A DNA stretch of 38,024 nucleotides, taken from the IMG/VR virus record IMGVR_UViG_2531839235_000024. One strand, 5' to 3'. The position numbers were made by a program, and so were the translations under genes. A model generated the notes under the pieces. That model was not told the DNA's origin, did no database searches, and worked only from the letters and a program-made list of their open reading frames with translations. The DNA is from a virus. Its lineage: Duplodnaviria > Heunggongvirae > Uroviricota > Caudoviricetes. Positions 372 to 37,747 of this stretch are shown here, piece after piece; within the stretch, counting starts at the first letter, position 1, and each line of letters begins with the position of its first letter.

Positions 372-1109
372 TCACTCACTCTCTTTTAAACCAGTTTTAA
401 CTGTTTGTGGTTTTGGGTAAGGCTGGACTTTGAATAGCTTTGTGTTGAGGCGTTTTCTGGCCCTCTTGTTCAGAAACCGGATGTAACGAAACTGACGGAA
501 TTTATGAACACTGGCTCTGTCGATATTAGCCCTCAGATGTTCACCTCGCTGTCCGCCTCGTTTAATGGCATTCCTGCAAATCTCGTGATACCACTCGCCA
601 TCAAGTTCATAGAATGTTGATTCGTGGCTGCCTACATAATCAAAATTGCTTGCCTGATACACGACACCAAGACAGCCACAACGCTCATCTGCAAACGACT
701 GAACCCACTGTACCTGCGGATAAAGCTGCCTGATTAGCTTGAGCGCGTAACTGATTGCCCTTGATTCGGAGTTTCTCGGCATACAGTCATGCAGCCATAA
801 CCGGTTAAGCTCCATATATTCACGGTTCCGCGTGCCCGTTACGACGCGTGCACCACTGTTTGGATTAAGGGCATAGCCCCATTGCATTACGCCAACCAGC
901 TCCCGTTCTGAAAATATGCCCAGATGAAGGTAGGAGTTATTTACGAAACGGTGGCTGTAATGTTTATTGACGATGACCAGTCTGGCCAGCCAGCAACTTA
1001 TTGTCTCAACCCGCAACTCACGGGAGCCATAACCAACGATATTGTCGTTATAGCGAATAAGTTCAGGCGTGCTGATGATACGGGATGTGACTTGCTTTCT
1101 GTTCCCCAC
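372..1109 (-). CDS. mom: Mom-like DNA modification protein (adenine hypermodification, anti-restriction)
   Basis: 245-aa ORF at the extreme right end of the prophage, immediately downstream of and overlapping a Com-type zinc-finger gene, as in Mu; GTG start inferred from the ORF track. Confidence 0.7.
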
Positions 1110-1263
1110 GACAGGATTTCCTTGTGTATGTGGGGTGCTCTGTGGCGCTCGGAGATGTGATTTGATTGAGGGTTTTACAGCGCGGACATTTTACTTCCAG
1201 ATAACTGAAACTGGCCCGTGCCAGTAGCTTATTGCAGTGTCGGCACCGTATGTTTCGATACAT
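1063..1263 (-). CDS. com: Com translational activator of mom (zinc finger)
   Basis: Internal ATG at 1263 preceded by AGGAGG; product [30 protein letters not shown]...EHPT matches the Mu Com CxxC-N16-CxxC zinc finger pattern as I recall it; 3' end overlaps the mom start. Confidence 0.8.
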
Positions 1264-1304
1264 GGCCGCATAACCTCCTGCTTTGTTGTTGATGCCTTTC
1301 TCAT

Positions 1305-1335
1305 GCAATCGATCGACAAAAACGATCGATTCGAT
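1305..1335. promoter_or_regulatory. GATC (Dam site) cluster upstream of com-mom; candidate methylation-sensitive regulatory region
   Basis: GATC at 1311-1314 and 1324-1327 within CAATCGATCGACAAAAACGATCGATTCGATT, about 50-65 bp upstream of the com ATG; Mu mom is known to be controlled through clustered Dam sites upstream of its promoter. Confidence 0.35.
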
Positions 1336-1663
1336 TTGTTTAATTGATACAACAAATAGATTGAAAAGTCATCAACAATGATTCAGGGCGGTGATTATTT
1401 ACTTAAAGAAAACGAAGACTTAGGTGGTGAAAACGATCATAAAATGATCATTTTATTGACTTTTTATACAGTGAAGGTAGGATCGCGCGTATATGTAGTA
1501 TGTTTCAAATCAACAGGATACTACATAAAGGGAGGTCCAGATAGTTACAGCTATCTGGACCTGGAACAAATTCGCATCAATGCTTTACTTCGAGCTCGTG
1601 TCGTATCCTATGATATTCCCCGGTCTCCTGTAAAGCAGAGATGCATAAAAAGGAGATCTTTAC

Positions 1664-1834
1664 ATGGATAAAGAGCCTGTTTGCCCTGCCTGTAAGACTC
1701 CCTTACAGCTCATCTATCGCCGTTCTCGATCTCAAAATGGCAAGACATACAAACCCCAAAATGCGTCCTGTTTCAGGATGCTGATATGTCCTGCCTGTTC
1801 TCCCCGGAGGGAAAGTACACAAAACGTGCATTAA
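1664..1834 (+). CDS. Small zinc-ribbon protein (56 aa; CPAC...CPAC), not in the supplied ORF track
   Basis: ATG at 1664 preceded by AAAAGGAGA with about 7 nt spacing; translation MDKEPVCPACKTPLQLIYRRSRSQNGKTYKPQNASCFRMLICPACSPRRESTQNVH; followed by a perfect hairpin at 1844-1863. Confidence 0.4.
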   Translation: MDKEPVCPACKTPLQLIYRRSRSQNGKTYKPQNASCFRMLICPACSPRRESTQNVH

Positions 1835-1872: not shown

Positions 1873-2118
1873 TTACATCATAGTACCGTCAGTTCCGGGC
1901 TGAACCGGCTCTGGTTGCTCTACGGCTTGAGGCTCATTCTCCGTGCTGTTTTCAGCCGGAGAATGGCCAACCATTCGGGCCAGCACTTCATCAACATATG
2001 CGTCGATTTGTGCCTCAAAATCCTTGCGAACCTGCGCCTTCAGCACGCGGTTCACTTCTTCAGAATAAAGTGCCTGTTTGACAAGCTCTTCAGTAACCGT
2101 GCCTTTAATCTCTGGCAT
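1873..2118 (-). CDS. Hypothetical acidic protein (81 aa)
   Basis: ATG at 2118 preceded by AAAAGGAG with 7 nt spacing; protein-like amphipathic composition; the overlapping plus ORF 1786..2247 looks like antisense junk. Confidence 0.5.
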   Translation of the reverse strand: MPEIKGTVTEELVKQALYSEEVNRVLKAQVRKDFEAQIDAYVDEVLARMVGHSPAENSTENEPQAVEQPEPVQPGTDGTMM

Positions 2119-2153: not shown

Positions 2154-2336
2154 TCAGAGCGGGGTCGGGTCGTTTGGGGATGACGGTGCCTGTGCTGTTT
2201 TACTGAGTTTTTCAGCTGCCGCATCATCAATTTTACGGCGAATATAATTTCTGATGACCTTATAACCGCCGCTCACCAGATATAACGCACTGACCACTGC
2301 GCAGAAATAAAGCAGCATTGTATGAACGAATGTCAT
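2154..2336 (-). CDS. Hypothetical small membrane protein (60 aa, one N-terminal TM helix)
   Basis: Hydrophobic segment LLYFCAVVSALYLVSGG followed by a charged tail; AAGG-type RBS upstream; immediately upstream of the 81-aa gene on the same strand. Confidence 0.4.
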   Translation of the reverse strand: MTFVHTMLLYFCAVVSALYLVSGGYKVIRNYIRRKIDDAAAEKLSKTAQAPSSPNDPTPL

Positions 2337-2482: not shown

Positions 2483-4531
2483 TTATTCTGTTACCGCTTT
2501 TTTCACTTCCACCACAATGCTGTCAATCAGCACCGGGTAAGTTGCATTTTTTGTGATATCCGTTACGCGGAGTTTGTCCACCGGGAAAGTTCCTACTGGT
2601 GACTGCGTCAGGGTAAACGCGGCACCATCCTGACCATCAATAACCGGAATAACCTGAAGGCTGTTATTTCCTGCAAAACGGAAGGCCAGCGTATGCCATT
2701 CATTATCAAATGCACCAAAGGTTCCCAGTTTCTGGTTATTTGTTGCCACTTTTGCATTGTGGTACATCACATTCAGGTCTTTTGCGTCTGTCTGGATGTA
2801 GAACGATGCCAGCAGATTATTCCCTGCATCCCCTGTCAGGGTGACACCCTGCGGCAGAGAGGAAACCGGCCAGTAAAGCGCCATGACATACTGGTTTGCC
2901 ACCAGGTCGCCCGGTACTTTAAAACGACAACTGATTAAACCACCATTTTTCAGCAGTTCAGCACCAGTACCGGCATCATGATCCAGATACCAGGATGATT
3001 TACCTGTTTCCTTGGTCAGTTTCATTGCCTTACCACCTGTGCCTCCTGCATCACTGATAATTTCAGCTTTACCGCCAGCCGGCTCCCAGCCCTGGGCTTT
3101 CAGATTTCCTTCTGACTCACTGACACGGTAAGACAGCAGTGTTGTGGTTACTGCTTCAGTTTCTGAAGGTGACGGCACTGGTGCTTCAGTTTCAGAAGAT
3201 GGAACATCGGCTTTTACTGTGGTTCGCCCCGCATGAGTCAGAACTGCCGTGGCCAGACGGTCGGAAATAATCCCACGACGTGCCCATGAACTGAAATGGC
3301 TGGCCCGGTCCGTAGATGTCCAGGTGGCGGCACTGTTACGCCACGTTGAGCCGTAATAACCAATGGATTCAATATCCGGGTCTTCTGCCGGATTGTTGGT
3401 GGGTACATTCGCGCCATTTTCATCTGTCATTAATGGGACGAAATGAATGTTTTTATCTGTTTTATTTTTGTAGCCGTCATAGATTGCCTGGTATGCCTGT
3501 TCGTTTTTCTGTTTCCAGAAATACGTGGTATCACCACAAATCCACGGAACGCCAGCAGCACTGCCACCGGTACACTGTTCCGCCTGTTCAGCCAGGTCTG
3601 CGCGGAATTTTTCCACCATCGCCAGAAACAGCGCAGAATGCTCCGTCGGCTTCGCATCAATATCAAACTCGCCCTGCATCCACACCACAGCAAGCAGGCG
3701 GTTTTTCGGGTTCTTCGCCAGTGCCGCTTTTGTCCGGCTGATTAAGTCCTTATACAGCGGCTTATCCACACCCCAGCGGGCTGAGTCCTCTGAAGCACCC
3801 GTGCTGTCACTGTACGTGCCGTCAGCACCCGCCGTGAATGCAGAACCACCACGGCAGCAGGGAACCAGCAGAATCCCCGCATCTGCCGGAATAAACGGCA
3901 GCAGTTTTTTGGCAATGTGAAGCCCCTGACCCACGGTGCCATATTGCCCTTTAGCCACATCCGCTTTCGGGTGATTTTTTCCACTCATATCCTGCACATC
4001 ATGCAGACAGTGGTCGGCCAGAATGATGTCGTTATACTGACAGGCTTTACCTCCCGGCGTGACTGTACTGCGACGGGCTAACTGCATAATACGCGGTTCG
4101 GGGCGGTCATATGTCTCCGGCAGTGGCAGACCTTCACCGTAAGCCATACCGTTTGACTGACCAGCAAGAACCACCACGTAATACCAGGAAGGGGAGCTGG
4201 AAGCCGTTTCATTTCCTGCCGGACGGGTATGTGTTTCTGCATTATCCCAGTCTGACGGTTCAGTAGTACCGGCAACATCAGCACTTAACGGAATGACAGC
4301 ACCAATACCCGCTCCGGTAATTTCCACGTTCGGATCACCGGATACTGGCCTTACCCACAGGCAATCCTGTGTATTAAAACTGATGAGACAGTCAGCAAAT
4401 GTCATTCCTCCTTTCGTTTCAGCAGGAGGAAAGGGAGCCTCAAGAAATGCCGCTGTACCACCGGAAACTTTAACGGTAAAGTTTCCGGGCATTGATGATA
4501 GTTGAACCCATTTGGACGTCATAATATTCAT
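2483..4531 (-). CDS. Carbohydrate esterase, SASA/SGNH-hydrolase type (sialate O-acetylesterase-like, NanS-p-like) with a C-terminal lectin-like domain
   Basis: 682-aa ORF containing the esterase blocks VVLAGQSNGMAYGEG and VVWMQGEFD, a Ser/Thr/Pro/Glu-rich linker (SSETEAPVPSPSETEA) and a roughly 240-aa C-terminal domain; AGGA RBS before ATG at 4531. It has no counterpart at this position in Mu. Confidence 0.6.
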   Translation of the reverse strand: MNIMTSKWVQLSSMPGNFTVKVSGGTAAFLEAPFPPAETKGGMTFADCLISFNTQDCLWVRPVSGDPNVEITGAGIGAVIPLSADVAGTTEPSDWDNAETHTRPAGNETASSSPSWYYVVVLAGQSNGMAYGEGLPLPETYDRPEPRIMQLARRSTVTPGGKACQYNDIILADHCLHDVQDMSGKNHPKADVAKGQYGTVGQGLHIAKKLLPFIPADAGILLVPCCRGGSAFTAGADGTYSDSTGASEDSARWGVDKPLYKDLISRTKAALAKNPKNRLLAVVWMQGEFDIDAKPTEHSALFLAMVEKFRADLAEQAEQCTGGSAAGVPWICGDTTYFWKQKNEQAYQAIYDGYKNKTDKNIHFVPLMTDENGANVPTNNPAEDPDIESIGYYGSTWRNSAATWTSTDRASHFSSWARRGIISDRLATAVLTHAGRTTVKADVPSSETEAPVPSPSETEAVTTTLLSYRVSESEGNLKAQGWEPAGGKAEIISDAGGTGGKAMKLTKETGKSSWYLDHDAGTGAELLKNGGLISCRFKVPGDLVANQYVMALYWPVSSLPQGVTLTGDAGNNLLASFYIQTDAKDLNVMYHNAKVATNNQKLGTFGAFDNEWHTLAFRFAGNNSLQVIPVIDGQDGAAFTLTQSPVGTFPVDKLRVTDITKNATYPVLIDSIVVEVKKAVTE

Positions 4532-4621: not shown

Positions 4622-5182
4622 TTATTTTTCCGAAACGCTCGCAGGATAATAACGATAAAGGGTTGAAAGGCCGATATCAAAAATAAGTGCCACCTGTCTT
4701 CGACTGACACCCCCGGCCAGTAAACGCCCGACCTGCTCGTATTGTTCCTGCGTGAGACGACGGGGTCTGCCGCCGGTTCGTCCCCTTTCACGGGCAGCTG
4801 CAAGACCAGCCCGTGTCCGTTCGACAATTAATTCACGCTCCATTTCTGCCAGCGCACCCATTATGTGAAAAAAGAAGCGCCCCATGGGGGTTGACGTATC
4901 AATGTTGTCAGTAAGACTACGAAAATTTATCCCCTGTTGCTGTAATTCATCTGTCAGCGCAACAAGGTGGCGCATACTGCGCCCCAGCCTGTCCAGTTTC
5001 CAGACCATCAGTGTGTCACCGGGTTTTAGTTTCTTCAGTGCCCGCTTCAGTCCCGGCCGCTGTGTCGTTTTACCACTCATTTTGTCTTCAAAAATCTGCT
5101 CACATCCTGCACATTCCAGCGCATTTCTTTGTAAACCGGTGTTCTGGTCATTTGTTGATACGCGTATATAGCCAATCAGCAT
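4622..5182 (-). CDS. gin: Gin/Hin/Pin-family serine DNA invertase
   Basis: 186 aa; N-terminal MLIGYIRVSTNDQNTGLQRNALECAGCEQIFEDK...TLMVWKLDRLGRS and C-terminal HTH GGRPRRLT match Mu Gin and serine invertases nearly residue for residue. Confidence 0.92.
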   Translation of the reverse strand: MLIGYIRVSTNDQNTGLQRNALECAGCEQIFEDKMSGKTTQRPGLKRALKKLKPGDTLMVWKLDRLGRSMRHLVALTDELQQQGINFRSLTDNIDTSTPMGRFFFHIMGALAEMERELIVERTRAGLAAARERGRTGGRPRRLTQEQYEQVGRLLAGGVSRRQVALIFDIGLSTLYRYYPASVSEK

Positions 5183-5236: not shown

Positions 5237-5262
5237 ATCCCTGAAACCTCGGTTTACGGGAT
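5237..5262. repeat. gix/hix-like recombination site (ATCCCTGAAACC-TC-GGTTTACGGGAT), gin-proximal boundary of the invertible segment
   Basis: 26-bp near-perfect palindrome with a 2-bp core, half-sites ending in AAACC as in Hin/Gin crossover sites; lies 55 bp upstream of the gin ATG. Confidence 0.55.
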
Positions 5263-5607
5263 ACTGTAAACAGGGCCGCGAATGCCCTGCCATCGAACGG
5301 AACGGCTGTTGCAGCGAATAAACTCGCCACTCCAAGAAATATTAATGGTGTCCCATTTGACGGAACGCAGGATATAAATATTACATCGGGGATGACGCAG
5401 TCTGTGGCTGACTCACGTTATGTTCAAAGCATTCGAAGAGGTTCAAGGTCAACGATTGGAATGCAATATAATATTTTTGAAGTTCCTGACGGATGCGTAC
5501 TTACAGGGCTTGATGTCGCTGGTGATGGTAATGCAACGGTAACCGCATATTATCGACCTGTTCAGTTTCTGATAGATGGTTCGTGGAAAACAGCTTCCAG
5601 CGCATAA
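5251..5607 (+). CDS. Alternative tail-fibre C-terminal segment (Sv'-like; has no own start, expressed only after inversion)
   Basis: Plus-strand frame encodes GLRDTVNRAANALPSNGTAVAANKLATPRNINGVPFDGTQDINITSGMTQSVADSRYVQ..., about 80% identical to residues 178-236 of the minus-strand tail fibre and in frame with the crossover core. Confidence 0.6.
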   Translation, partial: GLRDTVNRAANALPSNGTAVAANKLATPRNINGVPFDGTQDINITSGMTQSVADSRYVQSIRRGSRSTIGMQYNIFEVPDGCVLTGLDVAGDGNATVTAYYRPVQFLIDGSWKTASSA

Positions 5608-5686: not shown

Positions 5687-6208
5687 ATGGAGCTTATTAA
5701 CGTAAAACGATATTACCCGGAACACAAACCCTATGGTGAGGATGTTCAGTATTTCCAGAGTGAGGACGGAAGGGATTTTTATGAATCTATCCCGCTTTTC
5801 ACAAAGAAATACAAACTCTGTATTTCGCCTGTAACGGGTATTATCTGCTCTGTTGCTGAAGATGTCTCTGCTTTATATCCGGCAGGTTTTACTGTTGTTG
5901 AAGTGGACGAACTGCCGGAAGGTGTGAATATTGACGGTAACTGGCAGTGTTCTGATGGCCTGATATCAAAGGTGCCGGTAAACTGGAAGACGGTTGCTGA
6001 AAAGCGTCGCTCATCGCTGCTCCAGGAAGCCAACGAAACCGTGGATGACTGGAAAACAGAATTAAAACTGGACATGATTAGCGATGAAAATAAATTACAG
6101 CTGACGCGCTGGATGGCGTATATCCGACAGCTTAAAGAAATGCACTTTAATGATATTGCCAGTGAGGGGCATTACCAGGCGATTCCCTGGCCGGAAAAAC
6201 CGGAATAA
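5687..6208 (+). CDS. Tail fibre assembly chaperone (U'/Tfa-like)
   Basis: ATG at 5687 preceded by AAGGTG; 173 aa, typical size and position for the chaperone following the variable fibre segment inside the invertible region. Confidence 0.65.
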   Translation: MELINVKRYYPEHKPYGEDVQYFQSEDGRDFYESIPLFTKKYKLCISPVTGIICSVAEDVSALYPAGFTVVEVDELPEGVNIDGNWQCSDGLISKVPVNWKTVAEKRRSSLLQEANETVDDWKTELKLDMISDENKLQLTRWMAYIRQLKEMHFNDIASEGHYQAIPWPEKPE

Positions 6209-6242: not shown

Positions 6243-7154
6243 TTACACTGAACTTACCGTTCTCCAGGCATTATTAATATAAATCTGAACCGGGCGATAA
6301 TAGACCCCACCGATATTGTCCGCAGACCGGGAGCCGGTTTCCTGCACGTTAATACCGGAAAGCATACAACCGGAAGGTGCGCTGTAATTCCATGATATTT
6401 CATTGCCTCCGGGTGAATGATAGCTCTGTGCTCCAAGCTGAACATTCTGTACATACCGGCCATCTGCGGTTGACTGCGTCATTCCTGACGTGATGTTGAT
6501 ATCCTGCGTTCCGTCAAAAGGAACGCCATTAATATTTCTTGGGGTGGCGAGTCTGTTTGCTGCCACGGCGGTTCCACCCGATGGCAGGGCATCAGCAGCC
6601 TTATTTACCGTTTCCCGTAAACCGACGTTATCGATAAAAGCGCCTTTATCCGGAATGTCTGCGCCGTTCTGCTCCCTGCGCAGGTAACGGTTATCACCTT
6701 CGCTTTTGCTGTAAACATCCAGATTATTACGGGCGGTTCCCGCATTCTCCAGGTCGGCAAGGTTCTGATCCTTCGCCAGAGCATTAACGTCACCGGGACC
6801 AAGACTGTTTTTTGTGGCAAGCGCCCCAAGACCAAGATAACCACGGGCAAGACGCTGGGCTTCCGCACCGGCATCAGCAATTTCTTTCAGGTTGTTTTTC
6901 CGGGAAAAGGCATTCGCAGCGATAATGGCTTTAATGGACAGCGTAAGCTGGTTTAACTGCGCCTTATCCGGCTGAATACTGGCTTCAGCCAGAATATTCA
7001 GCAGTTCGGCCTGGAGAATATTCAGCCAGTCCTGACCAATCCAGCTGATACCTTTTTGTCCGTCACCTTCGGTAAACCAGGTGGTGGTATTACTCTGCGC
7101 CGGTGCCAGCGCAGGCATATTCGCCACGCCGGAATTATTATCAACATGAAACAT
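6243..7154 (-). CDS. Tail fibre protein (S-like; constant N-terminal part fused to the currently expressed variable C-terminus)
   Basis: 303 aa, follows gp48 with a TAATG stop/start overlap; its C-terminal third is paralogous to the plus-strand Sv' segment; a gix-like site lies inside the coding frame at 6612-6637. Confidence 0.75.
   Translation of the reverse strand: MFHVDNNSGVANMPALAPAQSNTTTWFTEGDGQKGISWIGQDWLNILQAELLNILAEASIQPDKAQLNQLTLSIKAIIAANAFSRKNNLKEIADAGAEAQRLARGYLGLGALATKNSLGPGDVNALAKDQNLADLENAGTARNNLDVYSKSEGDNRYLRREQNGADIPDKGAFIDNVGLRETVNKAADALPSGGTAVAANRLATPRNINGVPFDGTQDINITSGMTQSTADGRYVQNVQLGAQSYHSPGGNEISWNYSAPSGCMLSGINVQETGSRSADNIGGVYYRPVQIYINNAWRTVSSV
6612..6637. repeat. Second gix/hix-like site (TTCCCGTAAACC-GA-CGTTATCGATAA) inside the tail-fibre gene, inverted relative to the site at 5237-5262
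   Basis: Inner half-site and core are the reverse complement of the inner half of the first site (11 of 12 plus core); the flanking roughly 170-bp arms (5251-5430 vs 6445-6623) are inverted repeats of about 80% identity. Confidence 0.5.
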
Positions 7155-35656: not shown

Positions 35657-37747
35657 TCAGGCCAGCGGGTCATTTTCTTTTAATTTCGCTTCCAGCAACT
35701 GCAATCCCCGCTGGAAATTACGCTCGTATTCTTCATCAGGTTCATCGTCAGCGACCGGTTGCTGAACGGTCACCGTATTACCCACAGGGCGGTATATGTT
35801 TTCCAGCCAGGGCTCCTGCGGCTTGTGCTCCAGCACGTTGACAACCTCATCCTCGGCATCACGGATTTTTTCCTCTGCGCGTTTACGCATGCCTTTAAGG
35901 CGTTGCTGCTGTTTGTAGTATTCCGCGCTAACCGGGAAGGCTTCGCGTTTATTACCGTCCCATACCGCCTCGCAAATCACGCTGCCATCCAGGCGACGTA
36001 CGGTAATTCGTTCGGCATCATGAATGTCATAGCTGATAAGCACCTTACGACCATGCTCGTCACGCAGCTCGGGCGCGTAGTAAATATTATTCAGCCAGCG
36101 TATTTCACAGCGTCTTACAGGGCGTTCCACCATCGGCCGGAACATATCCCGCAGCTCAACATCGGACAGCCATTCAATTTCCGTGTCCTCTTCCGCCAGG
36201 CGTTTTTTTCTGAACTCCGCCGGGCTGTAATGCTTGCCGTTCGGCTTCACCGGTAATTCATCGTGCGGCCGGTTGTTGTACCACTCAACACCGTCACGAA
36301 TGGCATCAATCAGTTCAGACCAGGACGGTAAATCACGCATCGCTGACTGCTGCCGGGCGTTCAGCCGTTTGCCCTGTTGCAGGGCAGTAAATGCCGAGCG
36401 TAAATCGCGGTTGGTTTTGCGTAACGTCTCGCGATCTGCACCTTTCCCGAAATAGGTGCGGTATTTACGGGCTATGCGCATCGGTAATGTGCGGTTAAGC
36501 CGTTCGATAATGCCTCGTCCCTGCGGATTACCGGCAATCCCGGTCGGGTGGTTAATCCCCAGTCGCGGCAGTATCCCCACAACCTCCTTATCCAGGATGT
36601 CGGCGGTTTCCCCGGAGCCGTTATCCGAGTAATACAGAAACGGTTTGCCGTGATGGCGAATGCCGTGCTGTATGGCACCGGCTACGGCGAAAACATTTTC
36701 AGCCAGGTCAAGGCTCCAGCCCACCACAAAGCGCGTGCCACCGTCGATAACAAAGGTCACTTCCGGTGCAAATGGCCGACCGTGAACCGGGTGTGCGCAT
36801 TTCAGCTTCATGCCGTGACCGTCACCAATCCAGACATAATTCACCGGCATTCTGGACCAGTCGCGGCGCGTGAATCCCTCAAGCTGGCGGTATTCACTGC
36901 CGGTCACCCGGCCTTTTTGTTTCACCACTTCCGGCAGTTTCTTCATTGCGCGGCGAATGGTGTCATAAGACGGCATGATATCGAGCATATAAGGCTCATC
37001 AGCGTGCCGGTGCTGCCATTCAGCGACAAAATCCTCGTAAGCCTCGGTCATTGGTCGGCCGTTTGACTGGCGATACTGCGCCAGAAATTCGGGCAGCCAG
37101 TTAATATCTTCGGCTTTTATTTCCTGGCGCTTACCCGGTGCCAGTAAAAGCAGGCGTTCAGCGGCGTTCTGCGCCTTGTTAAAGGCCGCAATCCAGCGTT
37201 TCAGCGTTATTTCACTCAACGCACGGCTGTTTCCCTTTTTGGCGTTCGCCGTCTCAACCATTGCCACAATGCGCTCGTCCAGTTGCGAACGTGCCAGGTT
37301 GTCAACGATAAACCGGATAGCTTTCGCACAGCTGAAACCGGGTTGTTGCGCGACTTTCATCACTTCGCTGACGATCGCGATTCGTGCATCAGCCACCTGG
37401 CGCTGGTTTTCAGTCAGGGCATTAAGGCGTTCAACCATCAGTTGTGGTGATCCGCGATATGCCTCCACCGCATCAACCACGGCAGGCGAGCGTCTGGCCT
37501 TTGTCACCACCGGAGCCGGTGATTCATCAGCTTTTTGCGTCATCAGTTGAAGGGCATAACGTTCACGCAATACTTGTTGCGCGCCAGAAGGCAAACAATC
37601 GATATTAAATTCGATTGCTTTTGTCCCCTTACGTTTGCGTAACATGGCTGCATTTCCCGCAGCTGCTTTTGTGAGTCGATGGCGAATGTTATGTTCCATC
37701 ATTGGTAAATCAGGAAGACCAACACATTCTTTTGCTGTTACCCACAT
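35657..37747 (-). CDS. A: DDE transposase A (MuA)
   Basis: 696 aa; N-terminus MWVTAKECVGLPDLP parallels Mu A MELWVSPKECANLPGLP; size and position (ner-A-B). Confidence 0.9.
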   Translation of the reverse strand: MWVTAKECVGLPDLPMMEHNIRHRLTKAAAGNAAMLRKRKGTKAIEFNIDCLPSGAQQVLRERYALQLMTQKADESPAPVVTKARRSPAVVDAVEAYRGSPQLMVERLNALTENQRQVADARIAIVSEVMKVAQQPGFSCAKAIRFIVDNLARSQLDERIVAMVETANAKKGNSRALSEITLKRWIAAFNKAQNAAERLLLLAPGKRQEIKAEDINWLPEFLAQYRQSNGRPMTEAYEDFVAEWQHRHADEPYMLDIMPSYDTIRRAMKKLPEVVKQKGRVTGSEYRQLEGFTRRDWSRMPVNYVWIGDGHGMKLKCAHPVHGRPFAPEVTFVIDGGTRFVVGWSLDLAENVFAVAGAIQHGIRHHGKPFLYYSDNGSGETADILDKEVVGILPRLGINHPTGIAGNPQGRGIIERLNRTLPMRIARKYRTYFGKGADRETLRKTNRDLRSAFTALQQGKRLNARQQSAMRDLPSWSELIDAIRDGVEWYNNRPHDELPVKPNGKHYSPAEFRKKRLAEEDTEIEWLSDVELRDMFRPMVERPVRRCEIRWLNNIYYAPELRDEHGRKVLISYDIHDAERITVRRLDGSVICEAVWDGNKREAFPVSAEYYKQQQRLKGMRKRAEEKIRDAEDEVVNVLEHKPQEPWLENIYRPVGNTVTVQQPVADDEPDEEYERNFQRGLQLLEAKLKENDPLA

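Follow-up and report, generated by a model that had tools for sequence, protein, structure and literature searches.

Why does a Mu-like prophage carry a gene for a predicted carbohydrate esterase at its right end, between the DNA invertase gene gin and the com-mom operon, where phage Mu has only a short spacer? The gene lies on the minus strand at positions 2483..4531 of a 38,024-nucleotide (nt) stretch of caudoviral DNA (IMG/VR record IMGVR_UViG_2531839235_000024), which at its full length we call the window. A preliminary description of this DNA had proposed a NanS-p-like SASA/SGNH esterase with a Ser/Thr/Pro-rich linker and a C-terminal lectin-like domain and had considered it an unusual cargo for a Mu-like phage. 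The best explanation of the locus as a whole, to which we give a probability of roughly 0.55, is a NanS-p-family O-acetylesterase in the right-end accessory slot of a prophage of the type of Sp18 from Escherichia coli O157:H7 Sakai, with its N terminus swapped for a putative docking module specific to the phage type.

The ORF encodes a predicted NanS-p-family esterase

The open reading frame (ORF) is uninterrupted and comprises 682 codons when counted from the ATG at 4531; in near-identical prophages, RefSeq places the start three codons downstream, at the ATG at 4522, giving 679 residues. It is the ortholog of ECs_4993 of prophage Sp18, with nucleotide identity of 96 to 100% along its length, and ECs_4993, which entered databases with the Sakai genome, is labeled there variously as "hypothetical protein," "DUF6645 domain-containing protein," or "sialate O-acetylesterase." The ORF sits, as first described, between gin (4622..5182) and com (1063..1308). 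The gin-com interval spans ~3.3 kb in the window and holds the esterase gene, a DUF1378 gene, a DUF826 gene, and a pseudogene on the opposite strand, whereas the corresponding spacer of phage Mu measures 94 bp (35674-35767, with gin ending at 35673 and com starting at 35768). A BLASTN comparison of the Mu right end with the window aligned gin and mom, at 71% each, and nothing between them.

Pfam, PDB-sequence, and motif evidence place an SGNH/SASA esterase domain at residues 116 to 432 (3236..4186). The SASA family (PF03629) matches residues 119 to 316 with 46.2 bits against a cutoff of 24.8, residues 108 to 431 align to the sequence of the NanS/YjhS crystal structure 3PT5 (expectation value E, 5.9e-118), and the protein matches PHROG 143 with 1026 bits. 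All four SGNH blocks, as defined for NanS and NanS-p (PMC10462455), are intact: GQSNG at residue 124, which includes Ser126; CCRGGSAF at 225; WMQGEFD at 284; and RASH at 409, which includes His412. The two blocks named in the preliminary description, GQSNG and WMQGEFD, are therefore both real, and its SASA/NanS-p assignment stands; the alignment with 3PT5 keeps both the nucleophile, the Ser of GQSN, and the His of RASH. The linker that it had noticed is a Ser/Thr/Pro/Glu-rich segment (linker 2, residues 433 to 461; 3149..3235), and the C-terminal part is a lectin-like jelly-roll domain similar to PDB entry 6YP6 (2486..3148). DUF6645 matches residues 527 to 645 (Pfam; E, 4e-70), and residues 462 to 677 align to the NanS-p C-terminal domain of 6YP6 (E, 3e-112). 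The aromatic residues proposed to bind sugar, Y548, Y553, Y578, and F649, are identical in the protein of phage 1717 and correspond to Y510, Y515, Y540, and F611 in the numbering of vb_24B_21. We found no signal peptide, membrane segment, or hydrophobic segment in the esterase protein.

Amino acid identity to NanS-p of the Shiga toxin 2 (Stx2) phage 1717 is 82% in the esterase domain and 79% in the C-terminal domain. The likeness to the NanS-p proteins of lambdoid Stx phages (L0105/z1466 of 933W; vb_24B_21, or gp84, of phi24B) extends from these domains, their SGNH blocks, and their aromatic residues to the Ser/Thr/Pro-rich linkers, the lack of a signal peptide, and the DUF1378 and DUF826 genes downstream. 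On this homology, the protein is almost certainly a carbohydrate O-acetylesterase of the NanS-p family. Lambdoid NanS-p has been shown to de-O-acetylate mucin glycans and the 9-O-acetylated sialic acid Neu5,9Ac2 (N-acetyl-9-O-acetylneuraminic acid) (reviewed in PMC8065619). Judged by its relatives, sialate is the likely substrate, and the protein most probably has sialate O-acetylesterase activity.

The catalytic and lectin-like domains place the protein in the NanS-p family, but two family features are missing, the DUF1737 N terminus and the location in a lambdoid late region. Lambdoid NanS-p begins with DUF1737, a domain of ~54 residues with one helix and three strands that spans residues 3 to 53 in NanS-p of 933W (PMC10462455), whereas the window protein has in its place an unrelated all-beta module of ~85 residues. 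Lambdoid nanS-p genes lie between stx/Q and the lysis genes, whereas this gene lies between gin and com-mom of a transposable Mu-like myovirus. The chromosomal NanS (YjhS; 3PT5), a 9-O-acetyl-N-acetylneuraminate esterase, shares the catalytic fold and motifs. However, NanS belongs to the nan regulon and has a single domain, whereas the window protein is prophage borne, with its esterase domain flanked by an N-terminal phage module and the C-terminal lectin-like domain.

The esterase gene is a fixed feature of Sp18-type prophages

The carrier is an Sp18-type Mu-like transposable prophage of pathogenic E. coli. By Pfam, the window encodes MuA (Mu-transpos_C), MuB (Phage-MuB_C), a gpT-type major head protein, a contractile sheath, gin, com, and mom, and positions 244-37581 are collinear with Sp18, which is annotated as a "Mu-like phage," at 97 to 99.5% identity, in line with the Mu-like character first proposed. 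Sp18 has been judged intact (Asadulghani et al., PMC2669165), and Sp18-like phages occur at variable sites in lineages of E. coli that produce Shiga toxin (STEC) (PMC10132054). The right end of the prophage lies at ~244, and positions 1-243 belong to the host; they hold the 5' portion of a gene for an ABC-transporter permease, matched weakly by the UgpA family (E, 4.7e-4). Insertion is at other sites in Sakai (sorM) and in the remaining genomes that we opened, consistent with transposition.

The 5' 444 nt of the esterase gene, together with the upstream spacer, were found at 246 places in 205 of 5426 complete E. coli genomes; the com-mom segment of the Sp18 lineage was found in 233 genomes of the same set. 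At every locus opened, the esterase cassette stands in a Mu-like context, including variants without gin (L015 and L030) and one that has a C5 cytosine methyltransferase gene instead of mom (L016). Among the mom/com-positive loci sampled from Sp18-lineage prophages, none had an empty gin-com interval, and all carry the cassette. It is thus no one-off insertion but a fixed part of a known prophage lineage. The earlier view of the gene as unusual cargo thus holds relative to Mu itself and fails within the Sp18 lineage; related esterases also occur in Mu-like and P2-like prophages of Salmonella. The ORF is intact in all sampled genomes, and between the window and Sakai alleles, the ratio of nonsynonymous to synonymous polymorphism (pN/pS) is 0.16 in the N-terminal part, 0.24 in the esterase part, and 0.17 in the C-terminal part. 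The esterase gene is a real gene under selection. A search of the accessible literature found no paper that mentions ECs4993, ECs4994, or ECs4996 and no link between nanS-p and Mu-like phages.

The allele of strain RM9245 (L030, 3303-5345) is 95 to 99% identical to the window in its 5' half, and segments of its lectin-domain half have 76 to 91% nucleotide identity; this patchy 3' half indicates recombination inside the esterase gene. Strain 2014C-3011 (L029, 1-1003 and 4869-5345) has a second Mu-like copy with a split esterase gene, the 5' and 3' parts of which lie ~3.9 kb apart in opposite orientation, with the host genes dusA and pspG between them. This arrangement suggests an inversion between two Mu-like copies by way of the esterase gene.

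The N terminus is a module unrelated to DUF1737

The preliminary description missed that the protein has no DUF1737 domain and that its first ~115 residues are unlike lambdoid NanS-p. Pfam found no DUF1737 (PF08410) in the protein and no family at all for the N-terminal module (the N-module; 4277..4531, ~85 residues). Residues 1 to 107 did not align to NanS-p of phage 1717, and DNA similarity to ~300 Stx-phage records ends at window positions 4177-4184. The junction between the N-module and the NanS-p body is linker 1 (residues 86 to 115; 4187..4276), which is rich in Thr, Pro, Ser, and Asp, ends in SSSPS, and is predicted to be disordered. Linker 1 ends in ASSSPS (residues 110 to 115) and linker 2 contains VPSPSE; linker motifs with SSP have been proposed to serve self-processing in esterases of the phi24B gp84 type, but such a motif is short and the linkers are rich in Ser and Pro anyway.

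An exhaustive HMMER search with residues 1 to 110 against 1.84 billion representatives returned very few relatives. P0008, from Salmonella enterica, consists of the module, a Thr/Pro-rich linker, and the start of a SASA domain, with 27% identity (phmmer E, 4.6e-7). P0004 and P0005 are frameshifted fragments, and we rejected P0006, a 1,445-residue repeat protein, as a low-complexity match rich in Ala, Gly, Thr, and Val. A scan of viral contigs yielded a 784-residue esterase (L005), the module of which is homologous and 37% identical, and a locus in which the module is a separate ORF of 78 codons and the esterase begins 15 nt later (L006). Profile searches then extended the family to more than 40 clusters of free-standing module homologs of 75 to 86 residues, most of them 77 to 80 residues long and nearly all from S. 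enterica; the link of the window module to these proteins is transitive, through P0008 and L005. W8, P36, W59, and R61 are invariant across the N-module alignment, in homologs down to 20 to 37% identity. The function-unannotated family PHROG 4772 matches the window module weakly (E, 0.0016), P0008 better (E, 2.5e-5), and P0011 strongly (E, 2e-18).

AlphaFold2, run with the family alignment, predicted for the N-terminal part an all-beta sandwich over residues 5 to 82 (predicted local distance difference test score [pLDDT], 78.7; predicted template modeling score, 0.70), followed by the disordered linker. A run on the single sequence of residues 1 to 118 gave a pLDDT of 41 and was unusable, and the alignment-based run was used in its place. 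These alignments and the model argue that the N-module is a genuine domain from a small, uncharacterized family. A scan of genome contigs with the N-module alignment profile gave no match; as tblastn queries against the phage collection, the N-module and P0011 gave only two Mu-like insertions in Stx phages or nothing. The family is narrow, found in E. coli and Salmonella and absent from the isolated-phage records searched. As far as the literature could be checked, the module swap and the tail-fiber-linked module family are undescribed; the esterase itself is ordinary.

Amino acid identity to the window protein differs from domain to domain. Lambdoid NanS-p of phage 1717 has no alignment in the N-module and the identities of 82% and 79% given above in the esterase and C-terminal domains; a divergent allele from an E. 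coli Mu-like prophage (L015) has 59%, 70%, and 73% in the N-module, esterase, and C-terminal domains; and L005 has 37%, 65%, and 35%. The esterase and lectin parts of the window protein are thus nearer to lambdoid NanS-p than to the L015 allele, but the N-module is common to the Mu-like alleles only. By this pattern, the body recombines among prophage types, with a breakpoint in linker 1, and the N-module stays with the phage type. Such tracking of the phage type would be expected if the N-module must fit the particle, but it is not proof. The module at its N terminus, which is different and at home in the tail-fiber regions of myoviruses, makes the gene more than a lambdoid nanS-p transferred to Mu. 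We rejected a recent en bloc transfer from an Stx phage, since the DUF1378/DUF826 segment has no nucleotide match to lambdoid phages and the DUF1378 protein is only ~53% identical to the Stx-phage version.

Genomic context of the N-module

In every locus examined, the N-module family stands directly after tail-fiber, tail-fiber assembly (Tfa), or invertase genes and before variable soluble cargo; in the window, the order is gin and then the esterase gene. Two Mu-like loci (L005 and L030) have a tail fiber, Tfa, and a fused esterase. A Mu-like locus of Salmonella (L036) has an invertase, two small ORFs, and a fused esterase, and another Mu-like locus (L034) has an invertase, a module whose start overlaps the invertase stop, proteins of 135 and 123 residues, a DUF1353 protein, and a C5 methyltransferase. 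The order in a P2-like locus of Salmonella (L035) is fiber H, Tfa (G), a module with an overlapping start, an esterase with SASA and DUF6645 domains, and sheath FI; in other P2-like loci (L009 to L011), it is fiber genes, invertase, module, an ILEI-domain protein, and DUF1353. Loci L012 to L014, to which no phage type was assigned and in which Baseplate_J is present, have a fiber, Tfa, the module, a 332-residue protein, and a Tfa-like DUF4376 protein. A podovirus-like locus (L033) has an adaptor, a fiber, DUF4376, the module, two proteins of 119 residues, DUF1353, and internal virion proteins. The 332-residue protein aligns to DUF6645 and the C-terminal extension of the L005 esterase (E, 7e-8). 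The cargo is glycan related wherever it can be annotated, and no protein of any N-module cassette has a hydrophobic segment.

The 77- to 86-residue Salmonella prophage proteins (PHROG 4772; P0009 to P0049) are homologous to residues 1 to 80 of the window protein and share the invariant W, P, W, and R and the position after the fiber genes. They are free-standing and accompany separate cargo, namely, ILEI-domain proteins, a DUF6645-like protein of 332 residues, proteins of 119 to 135 residues, or an esterase without a module, usually with DUF1353. In the window protein, by contrast, the module is fused to its cargo and DUF1353 is absent. The same type of esterase occurs with a free-standing module (L006 and L035) and with a fused one (L005 and the window), which is a Rosetta-stone pattern.

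Proposed role and alternative explanations

According to a 2026 preprint, gp84 of phi24B is a capsid decoration protein whose DUF1737 hexamer binds the central hexons of a T=9 capsid (bioRxiv 10.64898/2026.04.10.717836), and because DUF1737 is the capsid anchor there, the N-terminal swap in the window protein matters. By analogy, the N-module may be a phage-type-specific docking piece, a proposal that we rate somewhat below an even chance. The gene would probably be reached by transcripts that run on from gin or, as in the relatives without gin, by those of the late tail operon. The esterase would then leave the cell at phage lysis; because it has no signal peptide, its substrate would be reached only on cell lysis. 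There it probably de-O-acetylates the 9-O-acetylated sialic acids of mucin-type glycans, as shown for lambdoid NanS-p. The N-module would hold the esterase and lectin domains on the Mu-type particle, most probably near the tail fibers, much as DUF1737 ties gp84 to the phi24B capsid. G7C gp63.1 offers a functional analogy as an SGNH-type esterase carried on the particle by an N-terminal attachment part (PMC10743462); however, gp63.1 acts on the host O-antigen as an essential receptor-binding protein, and no sequence relationship to the window protein is expected.

A wider version of this proposal, which we hold more tentatively still, makes the N-module a portable adaptor that moves together with tail-fiber modules and would dock interchangeable glycan-binding or glycan-modifying cargo onto Mu-like, P2-like, and some podovirus-like particles. 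The cargo would range from the esterase-lectin body through a lectin alone and an ILEI domain to small knob-like proteins, the anchor would be DUF1737 for the phi24B capsid and the N-module for myovirus tails, and NanS-p would be a virion-displayed enzyme acting on mucus and sialoglycans.

Several points weigh against docking and against the sialate esterase that it would carry. For a place in Sp18-type virions, phi24B gp84 is the one precedent, and both the substrate specificity and the activity of the esterase are read from homologs only. The fibers adjoining N-module genes come from at least three families, with no single conserved docking partner evident. The position after the tail fiber is also a classic hot spot for morons (in P2, for example, the Z/fun slot that separates G from FI), and context alone cannot separate a structural gene from cargo. 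A scan for consensus promoters upstream of the esterase gene gave nothing convincing; motifs of Mu C-dependent late promoters were not part of that search.

The gene could instead be a plain moron that improves lysogen fitness, made in the lysogen or released by the lysing fraction, and serving host nutrition only by converting Neu5,9Ac2 to Neu5Ac for the nan pathway. The N-module would then have no role in the virion and might be an oligomerization piece or an extra carbohydrate-binding module, with which a small beta-sandwich that keeps its Trp residues is compatible. The gene follows gin at the end of the prophage, with no terminator-like site in the 90-bp spacer that separates the two, and gin of Mu is expressed constitutively; the module and esterase of L035 lie between G and FI, the moron slot of P2-like phages. 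NanS-p enzymes from EDL933 and from O104:H4 enable growth on Neu5,9Ac2 (PMC8065619). However, a protein with neither a signal peptide nor a membrane segment cannot be exposed by a living lysogen, and the N-module is swapped exactly where lambdoid NanS-p has its capsid anchor. In L033 and L035, genes of the module family are embedded between structural genes; the module gene can overlap the stop codon of the Tfa or invertase gene before it, and the family accompanies nonenzymatic cargo as well. We regard a purely nutritional role as less likely than the main explanation.

A virion-borne esterase might act on the bacterium rather than on host sialoglycans, de-O-acetylating a surface polysaccharide (O-antigen, capsule, or colanic acid) at adsorption in the manner of G7C gp63.1. 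Like all N-module cassettes, the gene lies beside a host-range module, here the G segment; esterase tailspikes are established (PMC10743462), and such a role has been raised for NanS-p (PMC8065619). Set against this are the match of the catalytic domain to the sialate-specific NanS 3PT5, its closeness to lambdoid enzymes with shown activity on Neu5,9Ac2 and mucin, and the lack of a trimeric beta-helix or fiber-like shaft. We also know of no O-acetylated O-antigen in E. coli O157, and receptor modification appears distinctly improbable. By far the least probable account is that of a decaying remnant, a nonfunctional chimera from illegitimate recombination of a lambdoid nanS-p with Mu-like DNA in which the N-terminal 115 residues are junk. 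Genomes of enterohemorrhagic E. coli (EHEC) are rich in defective prophage mosaics (PMC2669165), and the neighboring plus-strand ORF is frameshifted, but the intact ORF in every sampled genome and the N-terminal pN/pS of 0.16 contradict decay. The N-module homologs, moreover, keep four invariant residues and a confidently predicted fold down to 20 to 37% identity, and Sp18 is predicted to be intact (PMC2669165).

The choice between an O-acetylesterase with a docking module and a nutritional gene bears on what NanS-p is for. NanS-p is usually regarded as a prophage gift that lets EHEC feed on O-acetylated mucin sialic acids. If the N-module is a second kind of virion anchor, the de-acetylation of sialoglycans would become a function of the particle, selected independently in unrelated phage architectures, for example, for adherence to or penetration of mucus, and the small module would be a new, reusable display adaptor. 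Should the portable-adaptor proposal be correct, esterase display would be a general and convergently maintained trait of enteric temperate phages and not a host-nutrition moron. Even if the N-module is no anchor, ECs_4993 gains a putative, homology-based function, and many STEC genomes would carry one more nanS-p copy with an intact active site, on a still-transposing element.

Neighboring genes and other features of the prophage

Upstream of the esterase gene, gin (minus strand) encodes a DNA invertase with Resolvase and HTH_7 domains. Downstream on the same strand lie genes for a small hydrophobic DUF1378 protein (2154..2336) and a DUF826 protein (1873..2118), both usual neighbors of nanS-p in Stx phages too. 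These genes and a frameshifted plus-strand homolog of ECs_4996 (1378..1834) were absent from the preliminary description. The ECs_4996 homolog consists of overlapping ORFs of 97 and 56 codons, has a G+C content of ~39 to 41%, converges on the DUF826 gene, and matches no Pfam or PHROG family; it is an intact 154-residue ORF in Sakai and is frameshifted in several genomes and intact in others, and the coding sequence annotated at this position in L015 is shorter, with 86 residues.

The stop codon of the esterase gene is closely followed by two G+C-rich hairpins, at 2405-2418 and ~2441-2469 (ACTCCTTCGGGAGT-ATTTTTATTTT; CTCCCGCCAGCCATATCATGACCGGCGGGA-TTTTTTT), each with a T run after it on the plus strand only. 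They resemble plus-strand terminators, although the plus strand has no gene that ends at this point; for the minus strand, they stand between the esterase gene and DUF1378.

A DUF1353 protein (~120 residues; PHROG 1158, "tail assembly chaperone") is highly conserved and closes most N-module cassettes (8802-9179 in L009, 10467-10859 in L005, 5980-6339 in L033, and 6054-6413 in L034). The E. coli Sp18-type cassette is without it and has DUF1378 and DUF826 in its place.

The G-like invertible segment is very short. Its inverted repeats of 182 nt (5245-5426 and 6448-6629) are 79% complementary and have 1021 nt between them. The segment contains only one tail-fiber assembly gene (5687..6208) and an alternative fiber C terminus of 71 residues (5392..5607), both on the plus strand. 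As the segment is now oriented, the 303-residue fiber gene on the minus strand (6243..7154) lacks an assembly gene that runs in its own direction.

The com-mom operon occupies 372..1308 on the minus strand, with com at 1063..1308 (1063..1263 in RefSeq) and mom at 372..1109. In some Mu-like relatives, a C5 DNA cytosine methyltransferase gene stands at the right end in place of mom (4963-6015 in L016, 7053-8102 in L034, and 11785-12837 in L005), in L016 still directly downstream of a com-like gene; this exchange would put one anti-restriction DNA modification module in the place of another. Immediately upstream of com in the window, the palindrome AATCGATCGACAAAAACGATCGATT at 1307-1331 contains two GATC sites, which suggests that mom has kept the Dam- or OxyR-type control seen in Mu despite the 3.3-kb insertion upstream.

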